Of a stretch of DNA of 64,000 nt, positions 43,627-59,429 are shown piece after piece. A program made the position numbers and the translations under genes. Each line of letters opens with the position of its first letter. Within the stretch, counting starts at the first letter, position 1. The DNA is from Gemmatimonadales bacterium (GTDB lineage: Bacteria; Gemmatimonadota; Gemmatimonadetes; Gemmatimonadales; GWC2-71-9). The DNA is taken from NCBI GenBank assembly GCA_035251445.1, contig DATFEG010000070.1, positions 3,563 to 67,562 of the forward strand. Direction: 5' to 3'. The notes under the pieces are model-generated. The model made no database searches. It worked only from the letters and a program-made list of their open reading frames with translations, and was not told where the DNA came from.

Positions 43627-44849
43627 ATCTCATCGAATCGCTGCTCACGGGGCTCGACGAGGCACGTCGTCACTGGGGGCAGACCCTCCTGTCGCTGCTC
43701 GGACTCGTGCTCGGCACGGCAAGTATCGTCACCGTCCTGGCGCTCTTCGGCGGCCAGACCGCGCTGACCGAGCAATTCCTCAACGAGGTCGGCGGCCGTG
43801 GAACGATCATCGTGTCCGACCGCGAAGTGTCCGCTCATCCCGGCGCGCGCGAGCTGGCGTCGAAGCGCCTGACGTTTAAGGACGCGCAGTACCTCCGCGA
43901 TCACGCCACGACCCTCGCCGCGGTCAGTCCGGGATGGGCACGACAGCTGCCCTATCGCGCCGGCAATACGAGCTTCGAGGGACAGGTCATCGGCACCGTT
44001 CCGGATTACATGGTCATCAACGACATCAAGCCGCTCATCGGCCGCTACCTCAGCGAGCTCGACGTCCGGCAGCAGTCACGTGTGGCCGTGTTGGGATGGA
44101 AGTACGCCGACTCGCTGTACGGCACGCCCGCCAATGCGCTCGGCAAGGTGGTGAGCCTCGGTGGTAAGAGCTATCGCGTGGTCGGCGTATTGGAGCGCGA
44201 AGAGTTCTACTTTGCCGCCTGGGAAGACAACGCGCTCGAGTATCGCAATGAGCGCGCCTACATCCCGATCTCTACCGCAATCACGCAGTACAGCGCCACC
44301 GACAATCTCGGCTTCCTGACGCTCAAGGCGCGACCGGCAGTCGGGGCGACGGCCGCCCAGGCGCAAGTCCGCAGCCTGCTGTATGCGCGCCACGGTGTGG
44401 AGGACTTTGACATCAGGGCATCGGGACAGGGGGCTGGGGCCGACAGCGGGCAGTTCCTCATGCTGTTCAATTTCATTTTTCTCGTGGTCGGAGTCGTTTC
44501 ACTCGTCACGGGCGGCATCGTGATCGCGAACATCCTGCTCGCGTCGGTGGTCGAGCGCGTGCGCGAGTTCGGTACTCGGATGGCCCTGGGCGCGACGGCC
44601 GGCAGCATCTTCGCGCACGTGTTGGCGGAAGTCCTCGTGGTCACGCTGATCGGCGGGTTGCTGGGACTGGGGCTGGGGACGGCGTTGACCGGCCTCGTCG
44701 CGGTCGTCATGCAGATGCCGGCTGTCGTGAGTCCGTTCATTGCCACCATTGCGATCGTAACTGCGACGAGTGTGGGCCTGATTGCCGGATTGTTCCCTGC
44801 GTTGCGCGCCGCGCGGTTGGCCCCGGTCGAGGCGTTGCGGTATGCGTGA
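43623..44849 (+). CDS. ABC transporter permease (MacB_PCD plus FtsX), probable non-canonical start
   Basis: The conserved N-terminal helix ...RRHWGQTLLSLLGLVLGTASIV begins upstream of the first ATG/GTG/TTG (GTG at 43707). A CTG at 43623 overlaps the upstream TGA. Confidence 0.8.
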   Translation: MNLIESLLTGLDEARRHWGQTLLSLLGLVLGTASIVTVLALFGGQTALTEQFLNEVGGRGTIIVSDREVSAHPGARELASKRLTFKDAQYLRDHATTLAAVSPGWARQLPYRAGNTSFEGQVIGTVPDYMVINDIKPLIGRYLSELDVRQQSRVAVLGWKYADSLYGTPANALGKVVSLGGKSYRVVGVLEREEFYFAAWEDNALEYRNERAYIPISTAITQYSATDNLGFLTLKARPAVGATAAQAQVRSLLYARHGVEDFDIRASGQGAGADSGQFLMLFNFIFLVVGVVSLVTGGIVIANILLASVVERVREFGTRMALGATAGSIFAHVLAEVLVVTLIGGLLGLGLGTALTGLVAVVMQMPAVVSPFIATIAIVTATSVGLIAGLFPALRAARLAPVEALRYA

Positions 44850-46086
44850 TTGGGTTGAGCTGATCTGGGATGCGCTGCGGGAGATCCGCGCGCATAAACT
44901 GCGTTCGCTCCTGACGCTCTCCGGGATCGTATTCGGGGCTGCCTCCGTCGTCTCCATGACGTCCCTCGCCGCGGCGATGAAGACGCTGGTTTACGAGGAC
45001 CTCATCGCCATGGGGTTGTCGCGGAGTTTCTTCATTCGTGATGAGGGACCGCGCTCGGACGCGAAGGGCGCCACGGCGCTGCGCTATACGGGATTGCGAA
45101 TCGCCGATCTCGATGCGCTCCGCGCGCTGCCCGGCGTGGCGAGCGTGCATGGACGGAATTGGGGCGACGAGAAAGTCGTCAACGCCCCGGCCGATCGGCG
45201 CCGCGTCCGGATCGACGGCGTGGATGCGGGCTACCTGGAGTTGCGCAACTGGCGCATCGTTGCCGGTCGCAGTATCCGGCCCCTCGATGTCGAAAACCGC
45301 TCGCGCGTCGCCGTCGTCGGCGCCGAAATGGCCGAGAATCTGTTCGGCACCGTGAACCCCGTCGGCCGGACGATCACCATCGACGGAGTGCGGTTTCTCG
45401 TAATCGGCATCGTGGCGCCGATCGAGTTCGATATCATTCCTGCCGATTTCAGTTTCGTCGGGCGGCGCATCTACATCCCATATTCCTATCTCACCCGATA
45501 CGCAAAGGGCGAAGCGCGGCTGGACGAGGCGCTCGTGACCGCCCGCGAGTCCGCCGAGTTCGGGGACGTGCTGCGCCGTGGCAGCGCCCTGGTGCGACAG
45601 CGGCACGGGGGGACCGTTGACTTCAACATCGAGAACGAGGCCGCCGAAGTGCTGTCCAATCTGGCGATGGCGGACAACATCCTCGGCGGTTGGAACGCGG
45701 TGATGTTCACCATCGCCGGCGTGACATTGGTGGTCGGTGGCATTGGGCTGTTCAGCGTGCTGCTCATTGCGGTGCGCGAGCGCGTCCACGAGATCGGGAT
45801 CCGCAAGGCGCTCGGCGCGGACGATAGCGCCATCCTGCGCCTGTTCCTTGCCGAGTCGCTCACGCTCGCGTTCCTCGGCGCGATACTCGGGATCGCCGGC
45901 GGCGCGGGACTCACCGTGATCACCGAGCTCATCGGCCGGCAGTTCGGCAAGCCCTTCGCCATTCCGGTGAGCATGCCCGGCGTGACGCTCGCCGTACTGT
46001 TCGCGCTGATTGTCGGGTTCCTGTTCGGCTGGTACCCCGCGCGCCGGGCGGCCCGTCTCGATCCCATCGAGGCTATTATTGGGTGA
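44842..46086 (+). CDS. Second ABC transporter permease (MacB_PCD plus FtsX)
   Basis: MRDWVELIWDALREIRAHKLRSLLTLSGIVFGAASVV. There is an 8-nt overlap with the upstream gene. Confidence 0.85.
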   Translation: MRDWVELIWDALREIRAHKLRSLLTLSGIVFGAASVVSMTSLAAAMKTLVYEDLIAMGLSRSFFIRDEGPRSDAKGATALRYTGLRIADLDALRALPGVASVHGRNWGDEKVVNAPADRRRVRIDGVDAGYLELRNWRIVAGRSIRPLDVENRSRVAVVGAEMAENLFGTVNPVGRTITIDGVRFLVIGIVAPIEFDIIPADFSFVGRRIYIPYSYLTRYAKGEARLDEALVTARESAEFGDVLRRGSALVRQRHGGTVDFNIENEAAEVLSNLAMADNILGGWNAVMFTIAGVTLVVGGIGLFSVLLIAVRERVHEIGIRKALGADDSAILRLFLAESLTLAFLGAILGIAGGAGLTVITELIGRQFGKPFAIPVSMPGVTLAVLFALIVGFLFGWYPARRAARLDPIEAIIG

Positions 46087-48215
46087 TGATCGGCTCAGCG
46101 GTCGCGTTACTTGCTCTCCAAGCCACTCCTCCCCCTCCCCCCACTCCCCCAGACACCGTCGTTCTGCAGCCCGTCAGCGTCACCGCGACCCGCCAAACGC
46201 TGAGTCTGTTCGCGGTGCCATTGGCCGTGACGCAACTCAAGAAGAGCGAGTGGTTTGGCATAACGGGCTATGGCCTCGATGATGCCCTGACGCTGGTTCC
46301 CGGCGTTGTCGCCCAGTCCCGCTACGGCAATCAGGACGTGCGCATCACGATCCGCGGCTATGGCGCGCGGGGTGCGGGCGATCGCTCGAATGCCGGCACG
46401 ACGCGCGGCATTCGCATCCTGCTCGACGGATTCCCGGAGACCGAGCCGGATGGCCGCACGTCCCTGGATGGTGTGGATCTCGCCGCGGCGCACGACGTCG
46501 AGATCGTGCGCTCCAACGCGTCGGCTGTGTGGGGAAACGCCGCGGGCGGCGTGGTGAGCATTTCCACCCTGCCCGGAGTCAGCGACCCACGGGCCAGCTT
46601 CGAGCCGATGGCGGGATCGTTTGGCCTGCAGCGCTATGCCGTGCGGGGCAGCATGCTCATGGGGTCCGGGATTCTGGGCGCGAGCTTCGTGCACAGCGTT
46701 GCCGATGGATGGCGCGCGCACTCGGCTAGTACGCGGTCGGTGCTCAACATGTCCATGCTGGCGCCCGTGAGCGACGAGACGCAGCTCGGCGTGTACGTGG
46801 TGGGGTCGCACAATCTGTTTCGCATCCCGGGACCGCTCACCGAGGCGCAGGCTGCCGTCGAGCCCCAACAAGCAAACTCCACCTACGTGGAGCGGGACGA
46901 ACGCCGCGACAATCGGGTGGCGCGACTGGGACTGGCGCTCGAGCATCGGGCCAGCCAGAAGGTCGGGATCTCGGCGATGCTGTACGCGAATCCCAAGGCG
47001 TTGCAGCGATCAGAACGGGGCACGTTCCGCGACTTTACGCGCTACCACCTCGGCGGCAACGGCGTCGTCCGAGTCGCCACACCGTTCGGAGCGGGCGTAC
47101 GAGGCGCGCTGGTTGTGGGAGCGGATTACGCGCTTCAGGATGGCGCGATTCTCTTCTATAGTCTCACGCCCCAGGGGACACGCGGAGATACGCTGCGCGA
47201 CAACAAGGCCGAAGCGGCCCGCAATGCCGGGATGTTTGTCGCCGAAGATCTGACGTTCGGGGCGAATGAGCGGTGGAATGTGTCCGTGGGGGCCCGCTAT
47301 GATGACATTACGTACGACTATCGCAGTTACATCAATCCCTCGCTGAACGATAAGAAATCCTTTACGGGCGTGACGCCGAAGCTTGGCGTGAGTTACCGCT
47401 TCACGTCGCAGCACAGCGTGTACGCTTCAATGGGTGGCGGCATCGAGGTCCCCGCGGGCAATGAGACGGATCCAGTGAGCACGTTCGGGCAGGATACCGT
47501 CTTTGGCATCAATCCGCTGCTCGAGCCGATTCGGTCCCTCACGGTTGAAATCGGGACGAAGCGACTGTGGGTGATCGGCACGAGCTCATTTGTTCGGGAG
47601 CTGAGCTACGATGTGGCGCTTTACCAAACGAACGTCAAAAATGAGATCATCCCGTATCGCGGGGGACAATTTTACTTCACCGCCGGCAGTGCGCGCCGGC
47701 GCGGTGCCGAGCTGGGGGTCCGTGTGGCAACCAGCGCCGGACTGTCAGTGCAGGCGGCGCTCACCTGGAACTCACACCGGTACACCGAATACCTGGTTGA
47801 TTCGGTCCATTACGACACGACCAAGCCGGGTGTCTTTGCCGACTATAGCGGCAACCACGTCGTGGGGGTCCCGGCATTCACCGGATCACTCGCACTCGAT
47901 GTCACGCCCGCCGCACTCAAGCCCGTTCGCCTGCGGGTCGGCGTGGAGAACATCGGATCCTTCTATACCGATGACGCCAATCAGGTGAACGTGCCTTCGT
48001 ACCGCATCGCCAACGCATCGCTGGGGACGGACCAGCCGTTCGCGTTGGGGGCTCGACTCGGGATTAACGCGTTCGTCACGGTGAACAATCTGTTCGACAG
48101 CCGCTATATCGCCTCGGCCTTCCTCAATCCGGATGTCGTTGGAGGGGAGCCCGTCGCGTTCGAGCCGGGACTCGCGCGCAACGTCGTCGTCGGCGTGTCG
48201 CTCGTGGCGCGCTAG
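46083..48215 (+). CDS. TonB-dependent outer-membrane receptor
   Basis: 710 aa with a signal peptide and plug motifs (VLQPVSVTATR, DVRITIRGYG, EIVRSNASAVWGNAAGGVVSI), then beta-barrel periodicity. Its start overlaps the permease stop. Confidence 0.85.
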   Translation: MMIGSAVALLALQATPPPPPTPPDTVVLQPVSVTATRQTLSLFAVPLAVTQLKKSEWFGITGYGLDDALTLVPGVVAQSRYGNQDVRITIRGYGARGAGDRSNAGTTRGIRILLDGFPETEPDGRTSLDGVDLAAAHDVEIVRSNASAVWGNAAGGVVSISTLPGVSDPRASFEPMAGSFGLQRYAVRGSMLMGSGILGASFVHSVADGWRAHSASTRSVLNMSMLAPVSDETQLGVYVVGSHNLFRIPGPLTEAQAAVEPQQANSTYVERDERRDNRVARLGLALEHRASQKVGISAMLYANPKALQRSERGTFRDFTRYHLGGNGVVRVATPFGAGVRGALVVGADYALQDGAILFYSLTPQGTRGDTLRDNKAEAARNAGMFVAEDLTFGANERWNVSVGARYDDITYDYRSYINPSLNDKKSFTGVTPKLGVSYRFTSQHSVYASMGGGIEVPAGNETDPVSTFGQDTVFGINPLLEPIRSLTVEIGTKRLWVIGTSSFVRELSYDVALYQTNVKNEIIPYRGGQFYFTAGSARRRGAELGVRVATSAGLSVQAALTWNSHRYTEYLVDSVHYDTTKPGVFADYSGNHVVGVPAFTGSLALDVTPAALKPVRLRVGVENIGSFYTDDANQVNVPSYRIANASLGTDQPFALGARLGINAFVTVNNLFDSRYIASAFLNPDVVGGEPVAFEPGLARNVVVGVSLVAR

Positions 48216-49633
48216 CGGCGCGCCGCCCCCCTCCCCAACGCCGCGTTCGTCGCTTCGTCCAGGATGCTCCAGATTCGGTCCACCCACTCGCGGTGCTCCG
48301 GTTTCATCATGACGGAGCGCAGGCAGACAATCGTGTCGCGATCCCTGCGCATGGGACCAACCTCGACCAGGTGCAGGGGGAGAGACACTAGTGCCAGGTG
48401 GAGCTGGCGATTCGCCGCTTCGGCAAAGACTCGTTTCGACAGATTCGATGCTTCCGATGCGCTCGAGGCGCGCGGGGCCCACACGAGAATGTCGAGCTCC
48501 GGCGCCGCCGCAGTGACGAAGCGGCCATCCTGCCGCAGCCGCGTGTGTAGCGCGAGCGCGGCGGCACGGCCGCTCTCCAGTCCTTTCGCAAATCCCCCAC
48601 CACGAACCAGGGGCAACAGCCGTTGCGTGGCCCACAGTGCAACCGCGGCGGCTCCGGGCCGGGAGCATTCGAGCGCGATCTCGCCGAGGTGGAGATCAGT
48701 GGACGTGTAATAGGTGTACGGTGACTCGTGGCGATAGAGCTGCCCGACCGCCGGTTCCTTGAAGAGCACGCAGCCACAGCCGTACGGTTGTAATCCATGC
48801 TTGTGGGGATCGATCACGACGGACGCTGCCTCCGCGATATGATCGAAGGCGCGTCGCGTCTCCGGTTCGAGATTGTCGGCAAGCAGGAAGTAGCCCCCAT
48901 AGGCGGCGTCGGCATGCACGCGGAAGTGATGGTGCCGCTCCCGCCGTAGCGCGACTATCGCATCGAGCGGGTCGACCGCCCCGGTCGCGGTCGTCCCAAG
49001 CGTCGCGACGACTGTGCCCACTCCACCCGCGGCGAGGCGCCGCTCGAGCGCGTGCACATCCATCCGCCCGCGGCGATCGCATGGAATCGTCTCGAACGGC
49101 AGTCCGAGCACGCCGGCGATGCGTTGATGTGTATAGTGTGCCTGAGTCGACGCGAGGATCGTTTGTCCCGGGTGCAGCTGGCTCGCGATCCACAGCGCTT
49201 CGAGATTCGCCATCGTGCCGCCGCCGCAGAGATGACCGAGATGCGTCGGCCACCCGATCATCCTGGCCAGCTCGGCAACAGCCTCCTTCTCCATCGCGGA
49301 GCTGGCGCGGCCGCCGTCGAGCGCATGGTTGTTGGGATTGAGCTGCAATGCCAGCTCATAGGCAAGCCGCGCGACAGGGTGCGGGGGCTTGAGCATCTGG
49401 CCGGCGTAGAGCGGATGGAAGTAGGGATAATTGTCGTGAAGACGATACGCGACTTCGGTCAACACTCCCTCGATGGCAGCCAGATTTGTTGATGGATCCA
49501 TGGGAGGCAGATGGACGAAGCCTCTGCTGAGACGTTCGAGGGCGTTGGCGAGGAGATGGAGCGTACCTGGTGGCCCGAGTGCATTCTCGAGCGCGTTCTC
49601 GCGGAGCGGCTCGAGGCTACCGCTGTTCTTCAA
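48212..49633 (-). CDS. PLP-dependent group II decarboxylase-like enzyme
   Basis: 473 aa, with GGTMANLEALW and the DPHKHGLQPYGCG lysine motif. Confidence 0.8.
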   Translation of the reverse strand: MKNSGSLEPLRENALENALGPPGTLHLLANALERLSRGFVHLPPMDPSTNLAAIEGVLTEVAYRLHDNYPYFHPLYAGQMLKPPHPVARLAYELALQLNPNNHALDGGRASSAMEKEAVAELARMIGWPTHLGHLCGGGTMANLEALWIASQLHPGQTILASTQAHYTHQRIAGVLGLPFETIPCDRRGRMDVHALERRLAAGGVGTVVATLGTTATGAVDPLDAIVALRRERHHHFRVHADAAYGGYFLLADNLEPETRRAFDHIAEAASVVIDPHKHGLQPYGCGCVLFKEPAVGQLYRHESPYTYYTSTDLHLGEIALECSRPGAAAVALWATQRLLPLVRGGGFAKGLESGRAAALALHTRLRQDGRFVTAAAPELDILVWAPRASSASEASNLSKRVFAEAANRQLHLALVSLPLHLVEVGPMRRDRDTIVCLRSVMMKPEHREWVDRIWSILDEATNAALGRGAARR

Positions 49634-50735
49634 ACGCCCTCAGGTACATCCGGTCCCACGCCGCCGGAATACTCTCGCGTGGCGAGTACGGCCCTGGCTG
49701 GTAGATGCGGGAGCTGACGCCCAGCTGGCTCCGCTCGCAGATGTGCCAGTCCTGACGGTTGGTGCGATCCCAAAACTCTTCAGCGTCCTGGATGTTGTAG
49801 CCCGCGGCCGCCGGCGCGTCGGGATGCACCATCCATTCGCAGATCACGCGGGACTGCGCGGGGCCGACCGGCCAGACCGTGTAAAACACCGCGTAGTCGG
49901 GATGCAGGCTCAACATCATCGTGGGGAACAACGCGTAGTAGAACGCGCGCCGCTGGTCTTCCGCGGGAAGCTGACCCAGCGGCAGCGCGCACGCCCGCCC
50001 GCTCATGGTCGCGCTTTCGTTCGGGGCCTTGATCTCCATGTATCCGCCGAGGAATGGTCCCTCGATCAGGTCGTTCGCCCCGCTCGTGTACGGTAGCTTG
50101 GTCGTCAGCTCCGGATGGATAGTGGGGCAGTGGAGGCACTCGTTGTAGTTCTGGAGAATCAGCTTCCAGTTCGCGCGGACGTCGTACTCGATGTGCCGCA
50201 CCGCGCGCAACCGGGGCAGGTTGTAGAGAGTGAATCGGTCGTTGAGCGGCGCGAACCACTGCGCCGCATTCGCCGCGGGGTCGAGACTCAAGAATAGGAA
50301 GCCTTCCCACTCGGCCAGCGCCACTCGGTGCAACGGGTACGCTGTCTTGTCAAAGCCTTCCACCTCGTTCATGTGCGGCGCACCGATCAAACGGCCGTCG
50401 AGCGCGTACGTCCATGCGTGGTAGGGGCACTGGATAGTTTCGGAAAGCTTGCCGCTGGTTGATTCGCAAATCCGCGTTCCGCGATGGCGGCAGACGTTGT
50501 AATAGGCCCGCCGCTCGCCAGACTGATCCCGCAGCACGATGATGCTTTCGCCCGCGATCTCCACAAGGAAGTAATCACCCGGAGCCGAGAGTCCCGCGTC
50601 GCGGCCGACGCAGATCCAGTGACGGGCGAAGATGCGCTCTTGCTCCTCTGCGAACACCGCCGGCGCCGTGTAATAACGGCCCGGCAGTGTGCGCGCTCCC
50701 TGGCGATAGCTCTCGACGGTCCTCAGGAACGTCAT
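49617..50735 (-). CDS. Rieske [2Fe-2S] non-heme-iron oxygenase alpha-subunit-like protein
   Basis: CRHRGTRIC...CPYHAW Rieske motif and an SRPBCC-like C-terminal domain. The ATG at 50735 overlaps the upstream stop (ATGA). Confidence 0.85.
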   Translation of the reverse strand: MTFLRTVESYRQGARTLPGRYYTAPAVFAEEQERIFARHWICVGRDAGLSAPGDYFLVEIAGESIIVLRDQSGERRAYYNVCRHRGTRICESTSGKLSETIQCPYHAWTYALDGRLIGAPHMNEVEGFDKTAYPLHRVALAEWEGFLFLSLDPAANAAQWFAPLNDRFTLYNLPRLRAVRHIEYDVRANWKLILQNYNECLHCPTIHPELTTKLPYTSGANDLIEGPFLGGYMEIKAPNESATMSGRACALPLGQLPAEDQRRAFYYALFPTMMLSLHPDYAVFYTVWPVGPAQSRVICEWMVHPDAPAAAGYNIQDAEEFWDRTNRQDWHICERSQLGVSSRIYQPGPYSPRESIPAAWDRMYLRAFEEQR

Positions 50736-52135
50736 AGGATCTCCCGCGCCGCGTTGCGCCCCGCTGCTCCTGGAATCCCGCCGCCCGGGTGCGTCCCGGA
50801 GCCGCACAGGTACAGCCCCTCGATCGGCGTGCGATAGCGGCTCCAGCCGGGGACGGGGCGCATGAACAGAATCTGGTCGAGAGTGAGCTCTCCGTGGTAG
50901 AGGTGGCCTCCACTGGCGCCACGCTGCGTGTGGTCCTCATCCGGCGACTGCAGCTTCACCTGGCCGGGCTGCGCCCCGAGCAACCGCGCGACGTTCTGTT
51001 GAAGGGCCTGGTGTCGCGACGCGCTTACCGTCCCATCCGTGAAGGGGACGTATTGCACATGCAGCTCGAGACGATTCCCGTCGGTGCGCTGCACTTCGAC
51101 GTACGGAGAGGCCGAGTCTTTGCCGTACTTGGCATCGTCATACGCGCGCTCCAGGTAGTCGAGCGAGGGCGCAATACAGAGATTCGCATAACTCGGCGCG
51201 CGCTCGAGCGTGAGCGTCCCGCGTGCAACCACACCACGCAGCTTGATGTTGTCCACGGCGCGAACGAATTCCGGGTCGAGCTCGATGGCGACAGGGTCCA
51301 GCGTCGCGCGCGGATCGGCGCTCGACATGACCCATGGCGCGAGCAGCGTATCACCGCTGGGCTTCAACACAACGCCGGTCGCCCGGCCGTTCGGGGCGAG
51401 CACGGTGGCGCGGTTGCCCCGACGTATTTCCACCCGCTTCATCCCGTCCAATACCTGCGTCACGTTCGAATGTACCGGACGGAACACGCCCGCCGGGCTG
51501 CCGGCGTGATGATGCAGGAAGCTGAAGGCCGTCCCCCCCGATCGGGGTCCCTGCTTCAAGTGCCAGATCCCGAGCGCGCCGAGCGCTCCCTTCAACACGT
51601 CGCTCTCGAACCAGTCGTCGAGCAGTTCCGCGATGGACATCGGCAGCACGCGAGCGAGGTCGATGACCGCCTGCTTACCGAGCCGTCGGACGTAGAGACC
51701 CAGGCCGCCGAGACGCGCCAGCTCACGCGGGTCGCGGGTCTCGATGTCGGGGGGCGGCGCGAGGTAGAGCCTTTCGAGAACACCCGCGAGCGTTCGCATG
51801 CGGCGGCAGAACTCCGGCCATTTCGACGCGTCGGGGGGACTGATACGGCGGATCGCCTCGACGGATCGTTGCAGGTTCCGAGACAGCTCGAGCGTGCCGC
51901 CGCCGTCGAGCGGGACGGTGAGCCACGGGTCTGGTTGCTCGAGCCGTAGCTGACTCAATCCCAAATCGCGAATGACCTCGGCTGGCACCCAGCCGATATC
52001 GGCGGAGTCGTCAGCCGATGCACGCTGTTCCACGACGACGACGCGTTTGCCGGCCCGGGCGAGGTAATGTGCGGTGACGAGGCCGTTGGCGCCGGCGCCG
52101 ATCACGATCGCGTCGTAACCGTCTCGCCGGTTCAT
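50732..52135 (-). CDS. FAD-dependent oxidoreductase, phytoene-desaturase (CrtI)/PYROXD2-like family, copy B
   Basis: YDAIVIGAGANGLVTAHYLARAGKRVVVVEQR at the N-terminus and GSGTHPGGGIPG at the C-terminus. The ATG at 52135 overlaps the upstream stop. Confidence 0.85.
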   Translation of the reverse strand: MNRRDGYDAIVIGAGANGLVTAHYLARAGKRVVVVEQRASADDSADIGWVPAEVIRDLGLSQLRLEQPDPWLTVPLDGGGTLELSRNLQRSVEAIRRISPPDASKWPEFCRRMRTLAGVLERLYLAPPPDIETRDPRELARLGGLGLYVRRLGKQAVIDLARVLPMSIAELLDDWFESDVLKGALGALGIWHLKQGPRSGGTAFSFLHHHAGSPAGVFRPVHSNVTQVLDGMKRVEIRRGNRATVLAPNGRATGVVLKPSGDTLLAPWVMSSADPRATLDPVAIELDPEFVRAVDNIKLRGVVARGTLTLERAPSYANLCIAPSLDYLERAYDDAKYGKDSASPYVEVQRTDGNRLELHVQYVPFTDGTVSASRHQALQQNVARLLGAQPGQVKLQSPDEDHTQRGASGGHLYHGELTLDQILFMRPVPGWSRYRTPIEGLYLCGSGTHPGGGIPGAAGRNAAREIL

Positions 52136-53760
52136 CGACTCCCAACCCCCCGGTCCTTCAGAATACGCATCGCGGCGAGCCGTCCCGAGGCGCCCATGAT
52201 GCCGCCGCCCGGGTGCGTGCCCGACCCGGATTGGTAGAAGCCGCGGATCGGCGTTGCGAATTTGGCCCATCCCGGGGCGGGGCGTAGAAAGAACAGCTGA
52301 TGCAGCGCCAATTCTCCCGCGAAGATGTTGCCCTCGCTGAGCCCGGTGATGCGCTCGATATCAACCGGTGTAATCACCTGCCGGTGCAGGATCTTCGACT
52401 TGAACCCTGGAGCGAAGCTCTCGACTGTATTCACCACCGCATCACCGAACGCTTCGCGTTTAGCGTCATTCCAACCGCCATTCAGGTGATACGGAGCGTA
52501 CTGTACGAAAATCGACATGACGTGTTTGCCCGGCGGCGCCATACCGGGATCGATCACGGATGGGAAGACGATGTCCATGTACGGACGCCGCGAAAACTCG
52601 CCGTATTTCGCGTCGTCGTAGGCACGCTCTACATAGTCGAGACTGGGACTGATCGAGACGGCGCCGCGATGCAGCCTGCCACCGGCGCCGTCGGGCAGGC
52701 AGGTGAACGTGGGGAGCGAATCGAGCGCGATGTTCACCTTGCCCGATGACCCACGAAACTTGAAGCGCTTGATGTCCGACACGAATTCGGGCGGCAGCTG
52801 ATCGGTATCGAGCAACTGCAAGAAGGTGCGGCGCGGGTCGAGGCTCGACACCACGGTCGCGGCGTCGATCTCGTCTCCGTTTTCCAGCACCACGCCGGTG
52901 GCCTTGCCGTTCCGGACGACCACTTTCGACACCCCGGCGTCGCACCGGATATCGGCCCCGAACGAGCGCGCCGCGGAGGCGATCGCTTCGCTGACAGCGC
53001 CCGTACCTCCTTTGGCGAATCCCCAGGCGCGGAACACGCCGTCCAGCTCACCCATGTAATGATGAAGGAGAACGTAGGCCGTTCCCGGCGAGCGTGGACC
53101 AAGGAAGGTGCCGATGATCCCGCTGGCAGACTTCGTGGCCTTGAGCACGTCGGTCTCGAACCACTCATCGAGAAAGTCGGCGGAGCTCATCGTCATCAAC
53201 TTGACGAGCGCGTGCAAACGCTCGCCGCCGAGGCCACGAAAGTGCTTGCCGAGCCGCAGCAGTGCGGCCAGATCGCCCGGTGCGAAAGACGTGGGATCCG
53301 GCGGAACCATGCTCAGGATCGGCTTCACGGCCTGCGCCATGAAGTGCATGAGCCGGCCGTACTCGTCGTACGCCTCGGCATCGCGGGGCGAGTGGCGATA
53401 CAGCTCGCGTCGCGTCTCATCGTGGTCGGCCCATGCCGCGAAGTAATCGCCGTTTTCCATCGGCGTAACCGTGCTCTCGAGCGGCAGGATGTGCAGACCA
53501 TGCCGCGGCAAATCGAGATCGCGGATGATCTCGGGCCTGAGCAAGCTGACGACATAAGAGAACATGGAGAACTTGAAGCCCGGGAAGATCTCTTCGGTGA
53601 CCGCGGCGCCACCCACGCGCGGCCGTCGCTCCAGCACCAGCACCCGCTTTCCCGCGCGCGCGAGATAGGCGGCAGTCACCAGACCATTGTGGCCGCCCCC
53701 AATGACGATGACGTCGTAGCGCGTGGCCCGCGTGGCCCCCGCATCCGCGATTCGCGCCAT
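52132..53760 (-). CDS. FAD-dependent oxidoreductase, phytoene-desaturase (CrtI)/PYROXD2-like family, copy A
   Basis: YDVIVIGGGHNGLVTAAYLARAGKRVLVLERR, FPGFKFSMFSYVVSLLRP and GSGTHPGGGIMG. The upstream 300 aa of the 850-aa track ORF is an alternate-frame artefact over the GcvT-like gene. Confidence 0.85.
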   Translation of the reverse strand: MARIADAGATRATRYDVIVIGGGHNGLVTAAYLARAGKRVLVLERRPRVGGAAVTEEIFPGFKFSMFSYVVSLLRPEIIRDLDLPRHGLHILPLESTVTPMENGDYFAAWADHDETRRELYRHSPRDAEAYDEYGRLMHFMAQAVKPILSMVPPDPTSFAPGDLAALLRLGKHFRGLGGERLHALVKLMTMSSADFLDEWFETDVLKATKSASGIIGTFLGPRSPGTAYVLLHHYMGELDGVFRAWGFAKGGTGAVSEAIASAARSFGADIRCDAGVSKVVVRNGKATGVVLENGDEIDAATVVSSLDPRRTFLQLLDTDQLPPEFVSDIKRFKFRGSSGKVNIALDSLPTFTCLPDGAGGRLHRGAVSISPSLDYVERAYDDAKYGEFSRRPYMDIVFPSVIDPGMAPPGKHVMSIFVQYAPYHLNGGWNDAKREAFGDAVVNTVESFAPGFKSKILHRQVITPVDIERITGLSEGNIFAGELALHQLFFLRPAPGWAKFATPIRGFYQSGSGTHPGGGIMGASGRLAAMRILKDRGVGSR

Positions 53761-54953
53761 CAGGCTCGCTTCCGCTCGGGATTGAAGAATGGCAGCGTAG
53801 TCACGTGGGCGGTGGCTTGCTTGCGCCGGTGCTCCACCGTGATTTCCATGCGCAACTGCGTGCCGGGCGCGGCGCTCGGCGACTCGAGATGCGCGAGCGC
53901 CATGTATTGCTTGAGAAGCGGCGACCAGCCGCCACTCGTCGCATAACCCACCTGGCGACCGCCGGGATCGTAAACCGGGACGCTCATGCGCCAGGCTTGG
54001 GTTGGCACGCGCGGTGGAAGCCCTACTTCGGCGTAGAGCTTCTCGAGCGAGTCCCAATCCACCGCCAGGCCGGTGAACTGCCACGCGGGCCCGCGGCGCC
54101 GCTCGGCCTCGAGCGCGCCCCGCCCATTGTAGCGCTCCTTGTCCGTTGCCACGGTCCACCCGAGTCCTAGCTCGAGCGGCGATGACTTCTGCGCCTCGAT
54201 GAGCGCGTGACGGGAAGAGAAGTAGTCGACTTCGATGAGGAGCAAGCCTGCTTCGATGCGCGCGACGTCGAGCGCCAGCATACCGGCAGGCGTGACGCCG
54301 TACGGCGCGCCCGTTTCGATCAGCGCGTCCCACAGCGGGACCGCTTGCGCCGCGTCCACCCAGATCTCGTAGCCAAGGTCGCCGGTGTAGCCGGTTCGGG
54401 AGATCGTGACCGGGATGCCGCGGATCTGCGCGCTGGTGAGCCTGAAGTACTTCAGTCCCCCGAGGTCGCGTTCGGCCGCGATCTGGAGAATCGCGCGAGA
54501 GTTGGGGCCTTGGAGCGACAACGCCGCGGTGCGCTCCGAGACGTCTTCGATCGAGACATCGAGGCCCGAGCCATTCAGGTGCAGCCACCGCAGGGTCGGA
54601 TCGGCGGCCGTCATGCGGAACCGGTGCTCCTCCAACACCGAGATGGTCCCGTCGTCGATCTGCTTGCCCTCGGCATCGCACCATGGCGTGTAGAGCACCT
54701 GCCCGACCTTCGCCTTGCCGACGTTACGCGTCACGACGTGATCGAGCAGGCGCGCGGCGTCGCGGCCGGTGACCAAATACTTGTACAACGGCGAGACGTC
54801 GAACAGCGCGGCTGCGTTGCGGATCGCGTGATATTCGCGCTCGTGCGACAGCTCGTATGCGCTGGCGACGACGTAGCCTGCCCAGCGCCGCCAGGCTTGG
54901 CCCTGGGAGAGCGGCCCGGTGCGCGCGTGAAACGGGGTGGTGCGGAGACTCAC
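53760..54953 (-). CDS. Aminomethyltransferase (GcvT) family protein
   Basis: 397 aa. TPFHARTGPL...EYHAIRNAAALFDVSPLYKYLVTGRDAARLLDHVVTRNV is typical of the GcvT/DmdA/sarcosine-oxidase-type folate-binding fold. Confidence 0.85.
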   Translation of the reverse strand: MSLRTTPFHARTGPLSQGQAWRRWAGYVVASAYELSHEREYHAIRNAAALFDVSPLYKYLVTGRDAARLLDHVVTRNVGKAKVGQVLYTPWCDAEGKQIDDGTISVLEEHRFRMTAADPTLRWLHLNGSGLDVSIEDVSERTAALSLQGPNSRAILQIAAERDLGGLKYFRLTSAQIRGIPVTISRTGYTGDLGYEIWVDAAQAVPLWDALIETGAPYGVTPAGMLALDVARIEAGLLLIEVDYFSSRHALIEAQKSSPLELGLGWTVATDKERYNGRGALEAERRRGPAWQFTGLAVDWDSLEKLYAEVGLPPRVPTQAWRMSVPVYDPGGRQVGYATSGGWSPLLKQYMALAHLESPSAAPGTQLRMEITVEHRRKQATAHVTTLPFFNPERKRA

Positions 54954-55354
54954 GACGAGACGTGCGTCTCGGCCGGGGCGAAGATGACCAGCACTTGCAG
55001 CTGTGCGGTGATCGAATGGAAATGGTGCTCGACCCCCGCGGGCACAAACACCGCCGAACCGGCTGCGACGGGCCGATCCTCGGTGCCGACACGGATCGTC
55101 GCCCGGCCATTCACGACGTAGTACAGCTCGTCTTCCTTGTGGGGCCCCTGGCGATCGGGTTCGCCGGGCTGCAACACGTACAGTCCCGCCGACATGGCAG
55201 GGACTCGGATCAATTCGAAGTAGTTGTGACCGGCCGGGCGTTCGGCAAAGAGCCGCGGGAGCTCGAAGTTTTCCATATCCGGGCGCGAAATCTCACGCCG
55301 CCGGGCCGTTCGTGCAAATTTCGCGTGATGCGCCTGCACCTGGTCGAGGTTCAT
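54950..55354 (-). CDS. Cupin-domain protein (134 aa)
   Basis: GPHKEDELYYVVNGRATIRVGTEDRPVAAGSAVFVPAGVEHHFHSI. I use the internal ATG at 55354. The stop overlaps the GTG of the next gene. Confidence 0.7.
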   Translation of the reverse strand: MNLDQVQAHHAKFARTARRREISRPDMENFELPRLFAERPAGHNYFELIRVPAMSAGLYVLQPGEPDRQGPHKEDELYYVVNGRATIRVGTEDRPVAAGSAVFVPAGVEHHFHSITAQLQVLVIFAPAETHVSS

Positions 55355-56068
55355 GATTTGCCGTCGTGTCCGCCGTCGTTGCGGGACGCGCTCACCGATT
55401 TTTTGGCATTCGCGCTCAATCTGTCTCGGGCCTATCAACCGGCTGTGCCGCTCCTGCGCCGCGCGCTCGCGCGTACCGGTGCGCGGCGGGTTGTGGATCT
55501 GTGCGCCGGCGCGGGCGGCCCCTGGAGCTGGCTCGCGGGGGAGATTGACGTGCCGGTCTTGCTCACGGACCTCTATCCACACCAGAGCGGCACACCGAGC
55601 CTCCCGTATCACCCCGAGCCGGTGGACGCGCGGGCGGTGCGGCCCGAGCTTGATGGATTTCGAACGTTGTTCACGTCATTCCATCACTTCCGTCCTGCGG
55701 AGGCGCGCGCGATACTCGCGGACGCCGTCGCCAAGCGGCAGGGGATCGCCGTCTTCGAGGTCGCGCGCCGAGCTCCCTGGGAGCTTCTGGTCGTATCGCT
55801 CACGTGGATCGGGGCCCTGCTCGCGGAACCGTTCATCCAACCCTGGCGCTGGTCTCGCTTTCTATGGACATATCTGCCTCCGGTCCTGCCCTTGGTGGGC
55901 ACGTTCGATGGTGTGGTCTCGTGCCTGCGGGCGTACTCACCCGGAGAGCTGCGGGACCTGGTGCGGGGGCTCGACACGTACGAGTGGCAAATTGGCGACA
56001 TGCGCGGCGGCTGGTCGCCGCTGCGGGGGACCTACCTGATTGGCGTCCCAAAGGTTCTCTTTGAGTGA
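55328..56068 (+). CDS. Class I SAM-dependent methyltransferase-like protein
   Basis: VVDLCAGAGGPW resembles motif I. The start is uncertain: ATG at 55328 (overlapping the divergent cupin start) or TTG at 55361. Confidence 0.55.
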   Translation: MRLHLVEVHDLPSCPPSLRDALTDFLAFALNLSRAYQPAVPLLRRALARTGARRVVDLCAGAGGPWSWLAGEIDVPVLLTDLYPHQSGTPSLPYHPEPVDARAVRPELDGFRTLFTSFHHFRPAEARAILADAVAKRQGIAVFEVARRAPWELLVVSLTWIGALLAEPFIQPWRWSRFLWTYLPPVLPLVGTFDGVVSCLRAYSPGELRDLVRGLDTYEWQIGDMRGGWSPLRGTYLIGVPKVLFE

Positions 56069-57363
56069 CGATGCGCCGAATGCTCTGCTTGGCACTTCTG
56101 CTTGTCGCCTGCGCGGAACTTCCCCCAATTCCCACAGTCACCGAACTCCAGCCGTTTCGCGCAACCACAGACGTTTGGAGCGGAAGCTCGGTCAGGATTA
56201 CCTCAGCAGCCTTTGCGGGTGCCGCCTCGCCTCCTGCCGTGTTGCTCGATCAGTTGCCGCTCGAAGCGCGTCGCGTTGACGACACGACACTCATCGCGTC
56301 GATTCCCGAAGCTCCAGGGCCGCACTACCTCCGTGTCGTCGCCAAGAATGTCGATACTGCTTCCATCATCGTCTATTTGCGCGGATTCGTGCAGCACGTC
56401 GAAGGACCCTTCCTCAGCGGTCGGGTCGAATCGGGCCGCGATCCACGCCATGTCTTCGGCAATGGCCCCACCAGCCTGCGCCGCTGGAATATCGCGACGA
56501 ACAAAGCGATCGATTATGCCGACAGTCTGCACGCGGTCACTTGCACGCGTGGCGTTGGACCCAGTCCGACCGCCGGCGATCTCGCACTTCTGACCGGGGG
56601 CTGTACCGCCGGCACCTGGATGGTCTGGCATCCCGAGCCGTTAGCTGCAACCGATACGACGTCGGTCGCCGTCACAGACTTCGTCGCGGTCTTGCGAACG
56701 GACCGCTGGATCGTGCTCAACAACGGCTTGTTCTCGCTCGTGGCGTGCGAGTCGGCGACGGTCTGTACCTCGGAAGCCATCGCCGGTCTTGTGGGCACCG
56801 ACGTGATGCGCTCACCGCGCGGTGATCGCGCCGCGCTACTCGGGCGCCGTGCCGGCCCGGGCGGCCCGGGCGGCCCGGGGCCGACAAATGTCATACCCGT
56901 CGTCGATGTCGCTGGCGGCGCGATCGCGTATCACGTGCCGCCGCTCTCTGGAGTGCAGGGTGCGGCTTTCACTCCCGAAGGCGACACGCTCTTTCTCGCG
57001 GGCGACTCCGCGGGAGCACCGGCACTCGCAGCCGTCCTCGCGGCCGATGGCGCACGGCTCGCGACGCGCACGCTTGCCCTTTCGCCGTGCGCGGTGGCGG
57101 CCGACGGCGCGCAACGCTGGCTGTACGTCGCCGGCCTGGTGACACTGGCCGCGGACACGACATCGGTGTTGCAAGTCCTCGATCGTGCAACGCTGAACGT
57201 GATCACGACCCTGCAGGTTACGGGAGCCGACGGGTACGACGGCAAGCGCTGCCGCATCGTGCAGAATCCGATCGAAAGTCGAGTCTACGTGGTGGCCACC
57301 TGGGCGGGAGAACACAACCCCGCCGTTCACGCGCAATTGTACAGCTTCGAGACTCCCCGCTAG
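56065..57363 (+). CDS. Lipoprotein, probably beta-propeller-like
   Basis: Lipobox LLLVAC and repeated strand-rich segments. The start overlaps the upstream stop. I recognise no firm family. Confidence 0.6.
   Translation: MTMRRMLCLALLLVACAELPPIPTVTELQPFRATTDVWSGSSVRITSAAFAGAASPPAVLLDQLPLEARRVDDTTLIASIPEAPGPHYLRVVAKNVDTASIIVYLRGFVQHVEGPFLSGRVESGRDPRHVFGNGPTSLRRWNIATNKAIDYADSLHAVTCTRGVGPSPTAGDLALLTGGCTAGTWMVWHPEPLAATDTTSVAVTDFVAVLRTDRWIVLNNGLFSLVACESATVCTSEAIAGLVGTDVMRSPRGDRAALLGRRAGPGGPGGPGPTNVIPVVDVAGGAIAYHVPPLSGVQGAAFTPEGDTLFLAGDSAGAPALAAVLAADGARLATRTLALSPCAVAADGAQRWLYVAGLVTLAADTTSVLQVLDRATLNVITTLQVTGADGYDGKRCRIVQNPIESRVYVVATWAGEHNPAVHAQLYSFETPR
56853..56879. repeat. In-frame 9-nt tandem repeat CGGCCCGGG x3
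   Basis: Read directly. It encodes GPGGPGGPG inside the lipoprotein. Confidence 0.85.
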
Positions 57364-57371
57364 GAGGACGC

Positions 57372-59429
57372 ATGCGTTCCCTGATATTGGTCGCGTTACT
57401 CGCCGTTCCCACCGCAGCCCGCGGTCAAGAAACCGCCTCCGATACGCTGCTCACCGTCAACCACTATCTCGACTGGGAACAGGTCGCTGATCCGCAGATT
57501 TCGCCCGATGGCTCGCAGATCGTTTACACCCGACGCTGGGTGAACAAGATCGAGGATCGGTGGGATGCGGGCTTGTGGATCATGAATGCCGATGGTTCGA
57601 AGAACCGGTTCCTCGTGAAGGGCTCGAACGCGCGCTGGTCGCCCGATGGGACGCGGATCGCCTACTTCGCCGATGGCGAGCCCAGGGGAACGCAGGTGTT
57701 TGTGCGCTGGATGGATGCGGCGGGCGCCGCCTCGCAGGTCACGCGAGTCAGCGAAAACCCGACAAATTTGAGCTGGGCGCCCGACGGCCGGTCGCTGGCG
57801 TTTACGATGCTCGTGAAGAGCGAAACGCCCTGGAAGATCAGCATGCCGCCCGCGCCTGAAGGCGCGAAGTGGACGCCCTCGCCGCGCGTCGTGGATCGCC
57901 TGCACTATCGGCGCGACCAGCGTGGTTTCATCGAGCAAGGCACTACACACCTTTTCCTCGTGTCCGCCGATGGCGGCACCCCGCGGCAGCTCACGAGCGG
58001 CCAATTCGGCGCCAGCGAATTGGCCTCGAGCCTCAATTACGACTGGACTCCCGACGGGCGGACGGTCGTCTTCGATGGTCTGCGGGAGGCCGATGCCGAC
58101 TATCGTTATCGTGAGTCCTACCTGTACAGCGTGAACGTCGCGAATGGCGACATCCGTGCGCTGGTCACGACAAAAGGCTTCTGGTCGAATCCGGAGATCT
58201 CGCCGGACGGCCGGACGGTCGTGTTCACCGGTCGCGAGGACGGACGGTTTTCCTATCGCGCGAATGAGGTGTGGGTAGTCGGCATTGACGGCAGCGGCAT
58301 GCGCGCGCTGACGACGTACGATCGCGATCCCGGAAACCTCGAGTGGGCACCGGACGGCAGTGGCGTGTACTTCACCCTCGGCGACCGCGGCACCAGCAAC
58401 GTCCATTTCGCCGGCCTGCGAGGTGGCTCGCGCAAGGTTACCGACGGCGTCCAGATGCTGGGGCTCAGCTCGATCGCTCGTGATTTCACCGCGGTCGGGA
58501 TACGCACCGATGTCGACGAGCCACCGGATGTCGTGCGGTACAGCCTCCGGACCAACAAGCCGGCGACCAAGCTTACGAATGTGAACGCCGATGTATTGGA
58601 GCGTATCAAGCTCGGTCAGGTCGAGGAGGTTTGGTACACCTCGACCAACGGGGCGCGCGTGCAGGGCTGGATCGTGAAGCCGCCAGGATTCGATCCCAGC
58701 AAGAAATACCCGCTCGTGATGGAGATTCATGGCGGGCCGCACGCGATGTACAACGTGTCGTTCAGTTATCAGTTCCAGAACTTCGCGGCCAACGGCTACG
58801 TCGTCCTGTACACCAATCCGCGCGGCTCCACCGGCTACGGTAGCCCGTTCGGCAACGCGATCGAGCGCGCCTATCCCAGCGTCGATTACGACGATCTCAT
58901 CTCCGGCGTCGATACCGTCGTCGCGCGCGGATACATCGACAGCCAGCGCATGTACGTAGGCGGCTGCTCGGGCGGTGGCGTGCTGTCGAGCTGGGTGATC
59001 GGGCATACGACCCGCTTCGCCGCAGCCGCGGTGCGGTGTCCGGTAATCAACTGGCTGAGCATGGCCGGCCAGACCGACGTGCCGCTGTTCACGTACAACT
59101 TCTTCGACGCCCCGTTCTGGGAGAAACCGGAGCAGTGGATCAAGCAGTCGTCACTAGCCTATGTCGGTAACGTCAAGACGCCGACGCTGCTCATGACGGG
59201 CGAGCTCGACCTGCGCACGCCGATGCCGCAGACCGAGGAGTACTATGCGGCGTTGAAATACCTCAAAGTGCCCGTTGTGATGCTCCGCTTCAACGGCGAG
59301 TACCACGGCACGAGCTCGAAGCCATCGAACTTCTTGCGGACTCAGCTCTACATGCTGAGCTGGTATCAGAAGCACCGCTTGGGGAGCGATGCTGCGGCGA
59401 ATGTGGGAGGCGACGCGCCGAAGCGTTAA
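57372..59429 (+). CDS. S9-family serine peptidase (prolyl oligopeptidase / acylaminoacyl-peptidase type) with an N-terminal beta-propeller
   Basis: An AGGAGG lies 5 nt upstream of the ATG at 57372. It has a signal peptide, repeated W.PDG motifs, the GGCSGGG nucleophile elbow and the ...GEYHG catalytic His region. Confidence 0.9.
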   Translation: MRSLILVALLAVPTAARGQETASDTLLTVNHYLDWEQVADPQISPDGSQIVYTRRWVNKIEDRWDAGLWIMNADGSKNRFLVKGSNARWSPDGTRIAYFADGEPRGTQVFVRWMDAAGAASQVTRVSENPTNLSWAPDGRSLAFTMLVKSETPWKISMPPAPEGAKWTPSPRVVDRLHYRRDQRGFIEQGTTHLFLVSADGGTPRQLTSGQFGASELASSLNYDWTPDGRTVVFDGLREADADYRYRESYLYSVNVANGDIRALVTTKGFWSNPEISPDGRTVVFTGREDGRFSYRANEVWVVGIDGSGMRALTTYDRDPGNLEWAPDGSGVYFTLGDRGTSNVHFAGLRGGSRKVTDGVQMLGLSSIARDFTAVGIRTDVDEPPDVVRYSLRTNKPATKLTNVNADVLERIKLGQVEEVWYTSTNGARVQGWIVKPPGFDPSKKYPLVMEIHGGPHAMYNVSFSYQFQNFAANGYVVLYTNPRGSTGYGSPFGNAIERAYPSVDYDDLISGVDTVVARGYIDSQRMYVGGCSGGGVLSSWVIGHTTRFAAAAVRCPVINWLSMAGQTDVPLFTYNFFDAPFWEKPEQWIKQSSLAYVGNVKTPTLLMTGELDLRTPMPQTEEYYAALKYLKVPVVMLRFNGEYHGTSSKPSNFLRTQLYMLSWYQKHRLGSDAAANVGGDAPKR

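Follow-up and report, generated by a model that had tools for sequence, protein, structure and literature searches.

A Gemmatimonadales operon encoding a GcvT-like protein and PYROXD2-type flavoproteins: a candidate system for folate-coupled N-demethylation

Introduction

Several described enzymes combine flavin-dependent amine oxidation with a tetrahydrofolate (THF) site of the GcvT fold. These include dimethylglycine oxidase (PDB 1pj5), DMGDH/SARDH, the heterotetrameric sarcosine oxidase SoxBDAG, and 4-methylaminobutyrate oxidase. Folate-coupled demethylases use a flavoprotein of the D-amino acid oxidase (DAO) type. Trimethylamine N-oxide (TMAO) demethylase, Tdm (PDB 9q5a), consists of an N-terminal catalytic half and a C-terminal GcvT-like domain that binds THF and channels formaldehyde (PMC13619132). 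Here, we compare these systems with an operon located on the minus strand at positions 48212–55354 of a 64,000-nt stretch of DNA (the window; positions 3,563 to 67,562 of contig DATFEG010000070.1, assembly GCA_035251445.1). The window belongs to contig C19 in a metagenome-assembled genome (3.08 Mb, 85% complete) of a soil Gemmatimonadales bacterium.

Two other groups of described proteins have relatives in this operon. Group V Rieske oxygenases, such as Stc2, GbcA, and CntA, possess an iron-site signature with a Cys-X-X-Cys pair (PMC10952381). PYROXD2 is an orphan mitochondrial flavoprotein; a severe disorder of infancy results from biallelic variants (PMC8777681). One common missense variant of PYROXD2 is among the strongest metabolite quantitative trait loci known, and the bacterial gene context offers a testable functional lead.

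We found that the bacterial orthologue of PYROXD2 is almost always encoded beside a dedicated folate-binding catcher of one-carbon (C1) units, and often together with PurU and a betaine-type Rieske oxygenase. This context points to oxidative N-demethylation. The features particular to the window are a genus-specific decarboxylase, a missing reductase, and a second flavoprotein that may be degenerate.

The operon and its conserved core

Six head-to-tail open reading frames (ORFs) were identified in the operon. From the first to the last gene, they are as follows (aa, amino acids):

54950–55354, minus strand: cupin, first gene, 134 aa, Cupin_2 (PF07883)
53760–54953, minus strand: GcvT-like protein with a stand-alone GcvT fold, 397 aa, PF01571 and PF08669
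52132–53760, minus strand: fl1, a flavin adenine dinucleotide (FAD) flavoprotein of the PYROXD2 type, 542 aa, Amino_oxidase and NAD_binding_8
50732–52135, minus strand: fl2, a divergent paralogue of fl1, 467 aa, Amino_oxidase/NAD_binding_8
49617–50735, minus strand: alpha subunit of a Rieske non-haem iron oxygenase of Group V (quaternary-ammonium type), 372 aa, Rieske and Ring_hydroxyl_A
48212–49633, minus strand: group II pyridoxal phosphate (PLP)-dependent amino-acid decarboxylase, last gene, 473 aa from a TTG start, PF00282

The domain content had been proposed in an earlier note, which was made from the sequence alone, and all six proteins do have Pfam matches well over the cut-off. None of them reaches an NCBIfam equivalog cut-off, and none thus corresponds to a named enzyme that has been characterised.

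A profile scan with one genome per species returned at least 590 relatives, and 80 loci were kept. The well-flanked set, to which all counts out of 63 refer, comprised loci with at least 2.5 kb on both sides. In 59 of these 63 loci, the distance between the fl1 homologue and a GcvT-like gene is at most 4 kb, and in 52 it is at most 500 nt. The 59 loci belong to at least eight phyla: Acidobacteriota, Chloroflexota, Gemmatimonadota, Actinomycetota, Planctomycetota, Myxococcota, Pseudomonadota, and Dormiibacterota. Across the loci, the identity values of the GcvT-like protein are correlated with those of fl1 (r = 0.95), as expected for a co-inherited pair.

Two architectures of the core were distinguished. 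A second flavoprotein is encoded directly downstream of the fl1 homologue in 46 loci, while the other 17 possess a GcvT-like gene and a single flavoprotein gene (fl1 identity of 47–55% in the main group). A Rieske oxygenase gene occurs within 6 kb in 16/63 loci. Fifteen of these are among the 46 loci with two flavoproteins versus one among the 17 with a single flavoprotein, which suggests, as a hypothesis only, that one enzyme is used per methyl group.

Within the genus of the window, 33 of 36 genomes encode fl1; among genomes of other genera in the order, 5 of 24 do. The tightly packed order GcvT–fl1–fl2–Rieske–decarboxylase was observed in all 13 genus contigs that are long enough to show it; the gene arrangement is therefore beyond chance. 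One relative (L005) has two genes inserted before the decarboxylase gene. The idea that the six genes form a single stoichiometric unit had to be abandoned, however. The decarboxylase gene is never linked to the core outside the genus, the cupin gene is sporadic, and the Rieske gene occurs in no more than 16 of the 63 loci. The co-inherited unit is the GcvT-like protein plus fl1, with or without fl2, and not a set of six invariant parts.

The genes accompanying the core were surveyed by calling ORFs de novo, clustering them, and assigning Pfam domains to the 140 ORFs that lie no more than about 2 kb from the core. Most frequent among them are Rieske alpha subunits (11), amino-acid permeases (10), and PurU, the formyl-THF deformylase (Formyl_trans_N and ACT domains; 9). 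PurU is over its equivalog cut-off, with 401 bits, and its gene lies directly after that of the second flavoprotein in 9–10 acidobacterial loci. This placement beside the module resembles sarcosine-oxidase operons, which reportedly contain PurU. The core-adjacent Rieske proteins fall into three sequence lineages, for each of which GbcA is the best family. Rarer neighbours include class-III aminotransferases, L-glutamate gamma-semialdehyde (P5C) dehydrogenase (5 loci), a threonine-aldolase-like PLP enzyme (3 loci), and aldehyde dehydrogenases. Peptidase genes (S9, M61, S58, and DUF4344) also recur near the core.

Flavoproteins fl1 and fl2 and the PYROXD2 family

Pfam analysis of fl1 revealed an Amino_oxidase domain (75.5 bits) and an NAD_binding_8 domain. 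The search of this protein against 1.84 billion cluster representatives yielded 3,062 relatives at E ≤ 1e-30. Proteins named PYROXD2 in their sources, from an oyster and a mayfly, were found within the best 25–45 relatives together with a choanoflagellate homologue. The oyster PYROXD2 (P0144) is one of the top 25, with E = 2.7e-133 and 462 bits. The resemblance to PYROXD2 had earlier been noted. It is borne out by BLASTP, in which fl1 and the oyster protein share 42.5% identity over the full length, and by their position in a common clade. In a maximum-likelihood tree, which was midpoint-rooted without an outgroup, fl1, other GcvT-adjacent primary flavoproteins, and three eukaryote PYROXD2 proteins are placed on one side (support 100/99), and fl2 groups with the second flavoproteins (support 100/99). 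The N-terminal 90 residues of fl1 and animal PYROXD2 are almost superimposable and include near-identical FAD motifs. The motifs GxGxxG, RxGG, and the C-terminal THPGGG are retained in fl1 and are invariant across 40 homologues. Unlike the bacterial protein, animal PYROXD2 has neither an adjacent or fused GcvT partner nor a Rieske partner.

The AlphaFold model of fl1 (pLDDT, the predicted local distance difference test, 86.8) has a long series of flavin amine oxidoreductases among its later fold matches, namely NicA2, the monoamine oxidases (MAO) A and B, and putrescine oxidase. The fold held in common with these amine-oxidising flavoenzymes counts in favour of N-demethylation. Among PDB sequences, nothing nearer to fl1 than CrtI was found (1e-18). 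The DAO-type domain PF01266 matches only the first ~40 residues, which correspond to the Rossmann motif. Known folate-coupled demethylases use a DAO-type flavoprotein, whereas the flavoprotein of this operon has a CrtI/MAO (PYROXD2) fold. The operon also differs from the fused demethylases in encoding GcvT as a separate polypeptide and in possessing a second, paralogous flavoprotein.

A carotenoid function was considered and was rejected. The overall fold of the fl1 model (4rep) and a family-level sequence similarity are shared with the CrtI/CrtO desaturases and ketolases, but the scores are far under the family cut-offs (CrtO NF045689, 302 vs 1000; crtI_fam TIGR02734, 120 vs 238). No crt genes were detected among the neighbours in the window or in the 80 loci.

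The two flavoproteins of the operon are paralogues with 36–41% identity. In the window, fl2 retains GxGxxG and THPGGG but lacks the RxGG FAD motif because of a 16-residue deletion. The missing GG motif is retained by the second flavoproteins of other phyla. Within the genus, fl2 diverges faster than fl1 (60–86% vs 85–94% identity). To judge from these sequence features, fl2 of this genus may be a degenerate partner subunit, either non-catalytic or altered in function.

A gene fusion was encountered in one locus (L108:1437–3887), where a single ORF of 816 aa combines a glutathione-dependent formaldehyde-activating (GFA) domain with a PYROXD2-like flavoprotein. The contig is eukaryote-like and also bears the eukaryote-type genes VMP1 and RTC. 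A search with the N-terminal part for a second GFA–PYROXD2 fusion recovered only the L108 protein itself. The fusion, a single observation, counts in favour of N-demethylation.

GcvT-like protein

The GcvT-like protein displays matches to GCV_T (PF01571, 209.7 bits) and GCV_T_C (PF08669, 42.6 bits). It is matched best by the THF domain at the C-terminus of TMAO demethylase (271 bits in NCBIfam; PDB 9q5a, 1e-52), followed by GcvT T-proteins, dimethylglycine oxidase, and the alpha subunit of sarcosine oxidase. It can be aligned with the THF domains in 1pj5, 2gag, and 9q5a, and the DD and GYTGD motifs are retained.

The Tdm domain is thus the best-scoring GcvT-like relative of this protein. Assignment to Tdm itself was nevertheless rejected: the full-length two-domain architecture is not present, the N-terminal catalytic half is absent, and only profile positions 386–761 are matched, with 271 bits versus a cut-off of 1100. 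Assignment to GcvT proper was rejected as well, on the equivalog scores (TIGR00528, 163 vs a cut-off of 236; NF001567, 225 vs 300) and on the lack of a gcvH/gcvP context.

The protein is also not the housekeeping T protein of the glycine cleavage system. The canonical gcvT is located on contig C22 and shares 29% identity with the operon copy, and the latter is therefore a dedicated one. A tblastn search of the genome with the operon protein revealed two GcvT-fold genes, i.e. these two copies; neither a DAO–GcvT fusion nor SoxA surfaced in this search.

Rieske oxygenase

The Rieske protein contains the Rieske (69.6 bits) and Ring_hydroxyl_A (163.9 bits) domains. Its best PDB matches are Stc2 (3vca/4qup, 3e-53), with which it shares modest identity in an alignment that falls into two stretches, and then CntA (2e-42). 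The top NCBIfam family is GbcA, with 236 bits, which is under the cut-off of 670.

The motif CRHRG-x16-CPYH (CRHRGTRIC...CPYH) occurs at residue 82 and ECLHCPTIH at residue 199. All features of Group V were found, i.e. the CxH...CxxH motif, the His-x4-His iron site, the bridging Glu, and the Cys-X-X-Cys pair. In this respect, the protein agrees with Stc2, GbcA, and CntA, which have the same Rieske and mononuclear-iron motifs. It differs from them in falling below every equivalog cut-off, and no reductase of the GbcB/CntB type was evident in its genus.

Cupin and decarboxylase

The cupin belongs to Cupin_2 (PF07883, 48.9 bits, E = 5.5e-13) and has a partial metal-binding motif, PHKEDE ... PAGVEH. 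About 8 of 19 genus loci contain its gene. Among the distant loci, it was detected in 3 of 63, directly upstream of GcvT in L029 and at a distance of 5.7–6.4 kb in L035 and L066. The cupin is a variable accessory gene.

The decarboxylase is recognised by Pyridoxal_deC (PF00282, 95.9 bits vs a cut-off of 27) and possesses the PLP-lysine motif DPHK at residue 275. It is under every equivalog cut-off, and its best matches in PDB and NCBIfam are spread over tyrosine, aspartate, diaminobutyrate, and cysteine-sulfinate decarboxylases. In each of the 13 genus contigs of sufficient length, the decarboxylase gene comes after the Rieske gene; it was not found in any of the 80 loci of other lineages.

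Proposed pathway and substrate

The earlier note interpreted this operon as a system for demethylation of an N-methylated compound. That interpretation fits the affinity of the GcvT-like protein to the THF half of Tdm and that of the Rieske protein to Stc2/CntA, including the Group V signature. We consider it rather probable, judging from homology and gene context, that the operon is a catabolic (salvage) route for stepwise removal of N-methyl groups from a methylated amine or amino acid, with transfer of the carbon to folate. The Group V Rieske oxygenase would hydroxylate one methyl group of a quaternary (trimethyl) nitrogen, with the release of formaldehyde. Oxidation of an amine C–N bond to the iminium is the reaction of MAO-fold flavoenzymes. 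Such oxidation of the tertiary or secondary N-methyl C–N bond would be carried out by fl1, acting as an N-methyl amine dehydrogenase or oxidase, with fl2 as a partner or a second catalyst. The GcvT-like protein would then capture the C1 unit on THF as 5,10-methylene-THF, in the manner of the GcvT domains that are fused into dimethylglycine oxidase, sarcosine oxidase, and Tdm (PMC13619132). PurU and related enzymes would recycle folate. In the genus of the window only, the PLP decarboxylase would act on an amino acid with a free alpha-amino group, and the cupin would be optional.

Side-chain methylated lysine, processed from tri-, di-, and mono-methyl-lysine to lysine and further to cadaverine, is our leading but tentative guess for the substrate. 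A PLP decarboxylase requires a free alpha-amino group, which fits side-chain methylation and not alpha-N betaines. The recurrent amino-acid permeases and peptidases near the core also count in favour of methyl-lysines. This substrate takes the lead because of the human genetic data: the PYROXD2 missense SNP rs2147896 explains 50% of the variance of plasma N6-methyl-lysine and 48% of that of N6,N6-dimethyl-lysine (PMC8109053). The same SNP is associated with trimethyl-lysine and N-methylpipecolate (PMC8109053; PMC13352909). Glycine or proline betaines are alternative candidates, as are further N-methyl amines. The GbcA/Stc2-like Rieske protein, as well as P5C dehydrogenase and the glycine-forming aldolase-like enzyme in some loci, count in favour of betaines.

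A further proposal, which is possible though doubtful, concerns a class of folate-coupled demethylases that has so far gone unrecognised and would act on free N6-methylated lysines and related N-methyl amines; the GcvT-like protein and the PYROXD2-type flavoprotein would be its bacterial prototype. In that case, animal PYROXD2 would encode the orphan enzyme epsilon-alkyllysinase (N6-methyl-lysine oxidase), and the flavoprotein pair of the genus might also power the reductase-less Rieske oxygenase, giving a self-powered three-step demethylation. According to PMC3936616, the epsilon-alkyllysinase activity was described from rat kidney in 1963–64; that paper equates it with LSD1. If correct, the proposal would account for the control of roughly half of the methyl-lysine variance in human plasma by a single PYROXD2 variant. 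If the N-demethylation reading of the operon is correct, the CrtI/MAO fold would become the third flavoprotein scaffold in folate-coupled demethylation, and a widespread route of methylated-nitrogen recycling would be present in soil Acidobacteriota, Chloroflexota, Gemmatimonadota, and Actinomycetota. The earlier note could match the gene combination to no described pathway. Our literature search likewise found none, and no publication was recovered in which PYROXD2 or CrtI-like proteins are connected with GcvT, THF, or demethylation.

Several observations weigh against N-demethylation or against lysine as the substrate. The functional case is built from gene context and homology, and no reaction is reported in the literature searched for any member of the PYROXD2 family. 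The closest fold to the fl1 model is that of the carotenoid desaturase 4rep (template modelling score, TM, 0.73). Genes for PurU, FolD, or an operon-associated transporter are absent from the window. The scheme of one flavoprotein per methyl group may fail in this genus, given the RxGG loss in fl2. Neither the decarboxylase, whose homologues all have generic names, nor the cupin gives any signal of specificity. The contexts of the core vary by lineage, with P5C dehydrogenase, polyamine- and gamma-aminobutyrate (GABA)-type genes in L019, or the threonine-aldolase-like enzyme. The PYROXD2-type family probably handles several substrates, and the bacterial data do not single out lysine.

The electron supply of the Rieske oxygenase is a further point of this kind. 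GbcB and CntB are reductases of the ferredoxin–NADP reductase (FNR) type, the kind normally used by Group V Rieske oxygenases. The FNR-type domain NAD_binding_1 (PF00175) was found neither in the genome of the window (G000) nor in G011, G014, G016, and G017, four genomes of the genus with a completeness of 99% or more; the same search detected it in 11 of 14 control genomes. Beside the Rieske-containing loci, neither a ferredoxin nor a reductase gene was seen. Four ORFs with Fer2 domains occur elsewhere, unlinked to the operon. The electrons could come either from an unrelated ferredoxin system or from the flavoproteins, which would hand them to the oxygenase.

Alternative explanations

The same chemistry could serve the route from glycine betaine via dimethylglycine and sarcosine to glycine. 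A GbcA-like Rieske oxygenase would act first, and the PYROXD2-type pair with the GcvT-like protein would replace DgcAB/SoxBDAG or DMGDH/SARDH non-orthologously. The two GcvT-fold genes recovered by tblastn, with no DAO–GcvT fusion or SoxA, agree with such a replacement, as do PurU after the core in 9–10 loci, recalling sarcosine-oxidase operons, and the glycine-forming threonine-aldolase-like gene after the core in three loci. GbcA is the best NCBIfam family of the Rieske protein; however, the score of 236 is far under 670, and Stc2 is the better structural relative. Moreover, no BCCT/ABC betaine transporter or choline genes were found among the neighbours, and once glycine is formed, nothing is left for a group II PLP decarboxylase to do. 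Animals have PYROXD2 in addition to DMGDH and SARDH, and variants of the human PYROXD2 gene are associated with methyl-lysines rather than with sarcosine or dimethylglycine. We therefore regard glycine betaine as an unlikely substrate. Proline betaine (stachydrine), N-methylproline, or a cyclic relative such as N-methylpipecolate appears distinctly unlikely, although the Rieske protein has no better relative of solved structure than Stc2, the stachydrine demethylase, and N-methylpipecolate is among the metabolites associated with human PYROXD2. An equivalog of P5C dehydrogenase occurs near the core in five loci and a prolyl oligopeptidase adjoins it in L042, but no proline dehydrogenase was seen beside the core. 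Stachydrine has two methyl groups versus three candidate demethylating enzymes in the operon, the decarboxylase would be left without an obvious role, and the identity to Stc2 is modest, with the alignment split in two.

Two other explanations dispense with demethylation by the flavoproteins or with catabolism altogether. In the one, the flavoproteins would be electron-transfer partners of the Rieske oxygenase or desaturases/oxidases of a carbon skeleton, and the GcvT-like protein would mop up the formaldehyde made by the oxygenase. The lack of PF00175 and of adjacent ferredoxin or reductase genes is in line with this explanation, and so is the carotenoid desaturase as the closest fold of fl1. 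Yet the GcvT–flavoprotein core has no Rieske gene in 47 of 63 loci. The core must thus be able to function in the absence of a Rieske partner; the flavoproteins cannot serve solely as the reductase of such a partner, and the oxygenase cannot be the only source of formaldehyde. To our knowledge, animals, which possess PYROXD2, have no such Rieske oxygenase. The explanation is improbable on these grounds. Even less can be said for a biosynthetic cluster for a specialised amine or alkaloid-like metabolite that would be tailored by the decarboxylase, oxidases, and oxygenase. A PLP decarboxylase, oxidative tailoring enzymes, and a cupin reportedly make a common biosynthetic mix, and a lanthipeptide cluster lies near the module in L006. 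Scaffold-forming enzymes (non-ribosomal peptide synthetase, polyketide synthase, or methyltransferase) are, however, absent from the operon, the decarboxylase is linked in one genus only, and the genes conserved alongside the core belong to catabolism or the recycling of C1 units (PurU, permeases, aminotransferases, and aldehyde dehydrogenases). A biosynthetic role is accordingly most improbable, and catabolic N-demethylation with transfer of the carbon to folate is the reading we prefer.

Gene junctions and flanking regions

Reading of the junction sequences agreed with the six minus-strand genes and the five start/stop overlaps listed in the earlier note, the last of them given the TTG start. 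The cupin stop codon and the GTG start of the GcvT-like gene share GTGA at 54950–54953. The GcvT-like and fl1 genes overlap by 1 nt in TGATG at 53760. ATGA is found at both the fl1/fl2 (52132–52135) and the fl2/Rieske (50732–50735) junctions. The Rieske and decarboxylase genes overlap by 17 nt (49617–49633), conditional on the decarboxylase start at TTG 49633. This codon is the sole canonical start that precedes residues 31–44 of the decarboxylase, which are kept in the L005 orthologue. The overlap is probably real but not proven, because many gene callers place the starts of relatives 20–55 codons downstream of the TTG equivalent.

The scan of positions 47800–56200 revealed no internal terminator above chance and no sigma-70-type promoter. 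No Rfam elements, including glycine and THF riboswitches, were detected in the whole window. The decarboxylase gene and the convergent gene of a TonB-dependent receptor on the plus strand both end in the palindrome CTAG at 48212–48215. Their TAG stop codons overlap there, with no intergenic space or terminator between the two genes. At the other end, the cupin ATG (55354, minus strand) overlaps the ATG of a divergent methyltransferase-like gene (55328, plus strand) by 27 nt (55328–55354), which leaves no intergenic promoter region. In genus members without the cupin, the GcvT gene is directly divergent from the methyltransferase-like gene. The latter gene and that of an S9 peptidase (57087–59429 in the window), both on the strand opposite to the operon, are syntenic throughout the genus.

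The plus-strand genes that converge on the operon (41819–48215) encode an HlyD adaptor, an ABC ATPase, two MacB-type permeases, and the TonB-dependent receptor. This neighbourhood, to which attention had been drawn earlier, is not conserved: the receptor gene adjoins the operon in 3 of 20 loci of relatives. The receptor and MacAB genes were rejected as members of the pathway, since they are not syntenic in most relatives.

Gene contexts in individual relatives

In a member of the Terriglobia (L042:2252–8592), genes for an S9 prolyl oligopeptidase, an M61 peptidase, a second S9 peptidase, and a DUF4344 protein are clustered beside the core. In a member of the Chloroflexota (L019:3000–19100), the GcvT gene and a single flavoprotein gene are located amid genes for a polyamine-type solute-binding protein, an aldehyde dehydrogenase, and a separate amine oxidase, with three GABA-type aminotransferases and a CN-hydrolase as further neighbours. 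This context suggests a different N-methyl amine substrate in that organism. In another member of the Gemmatimonadota (L006:1–7070), a class I lanthipeptide cluster that encodes a LanC-like protein, a lanthionine dehydratase, and an S8 peptidase lies just upstream of an IclR–GcvT–fl1–fl2 module.

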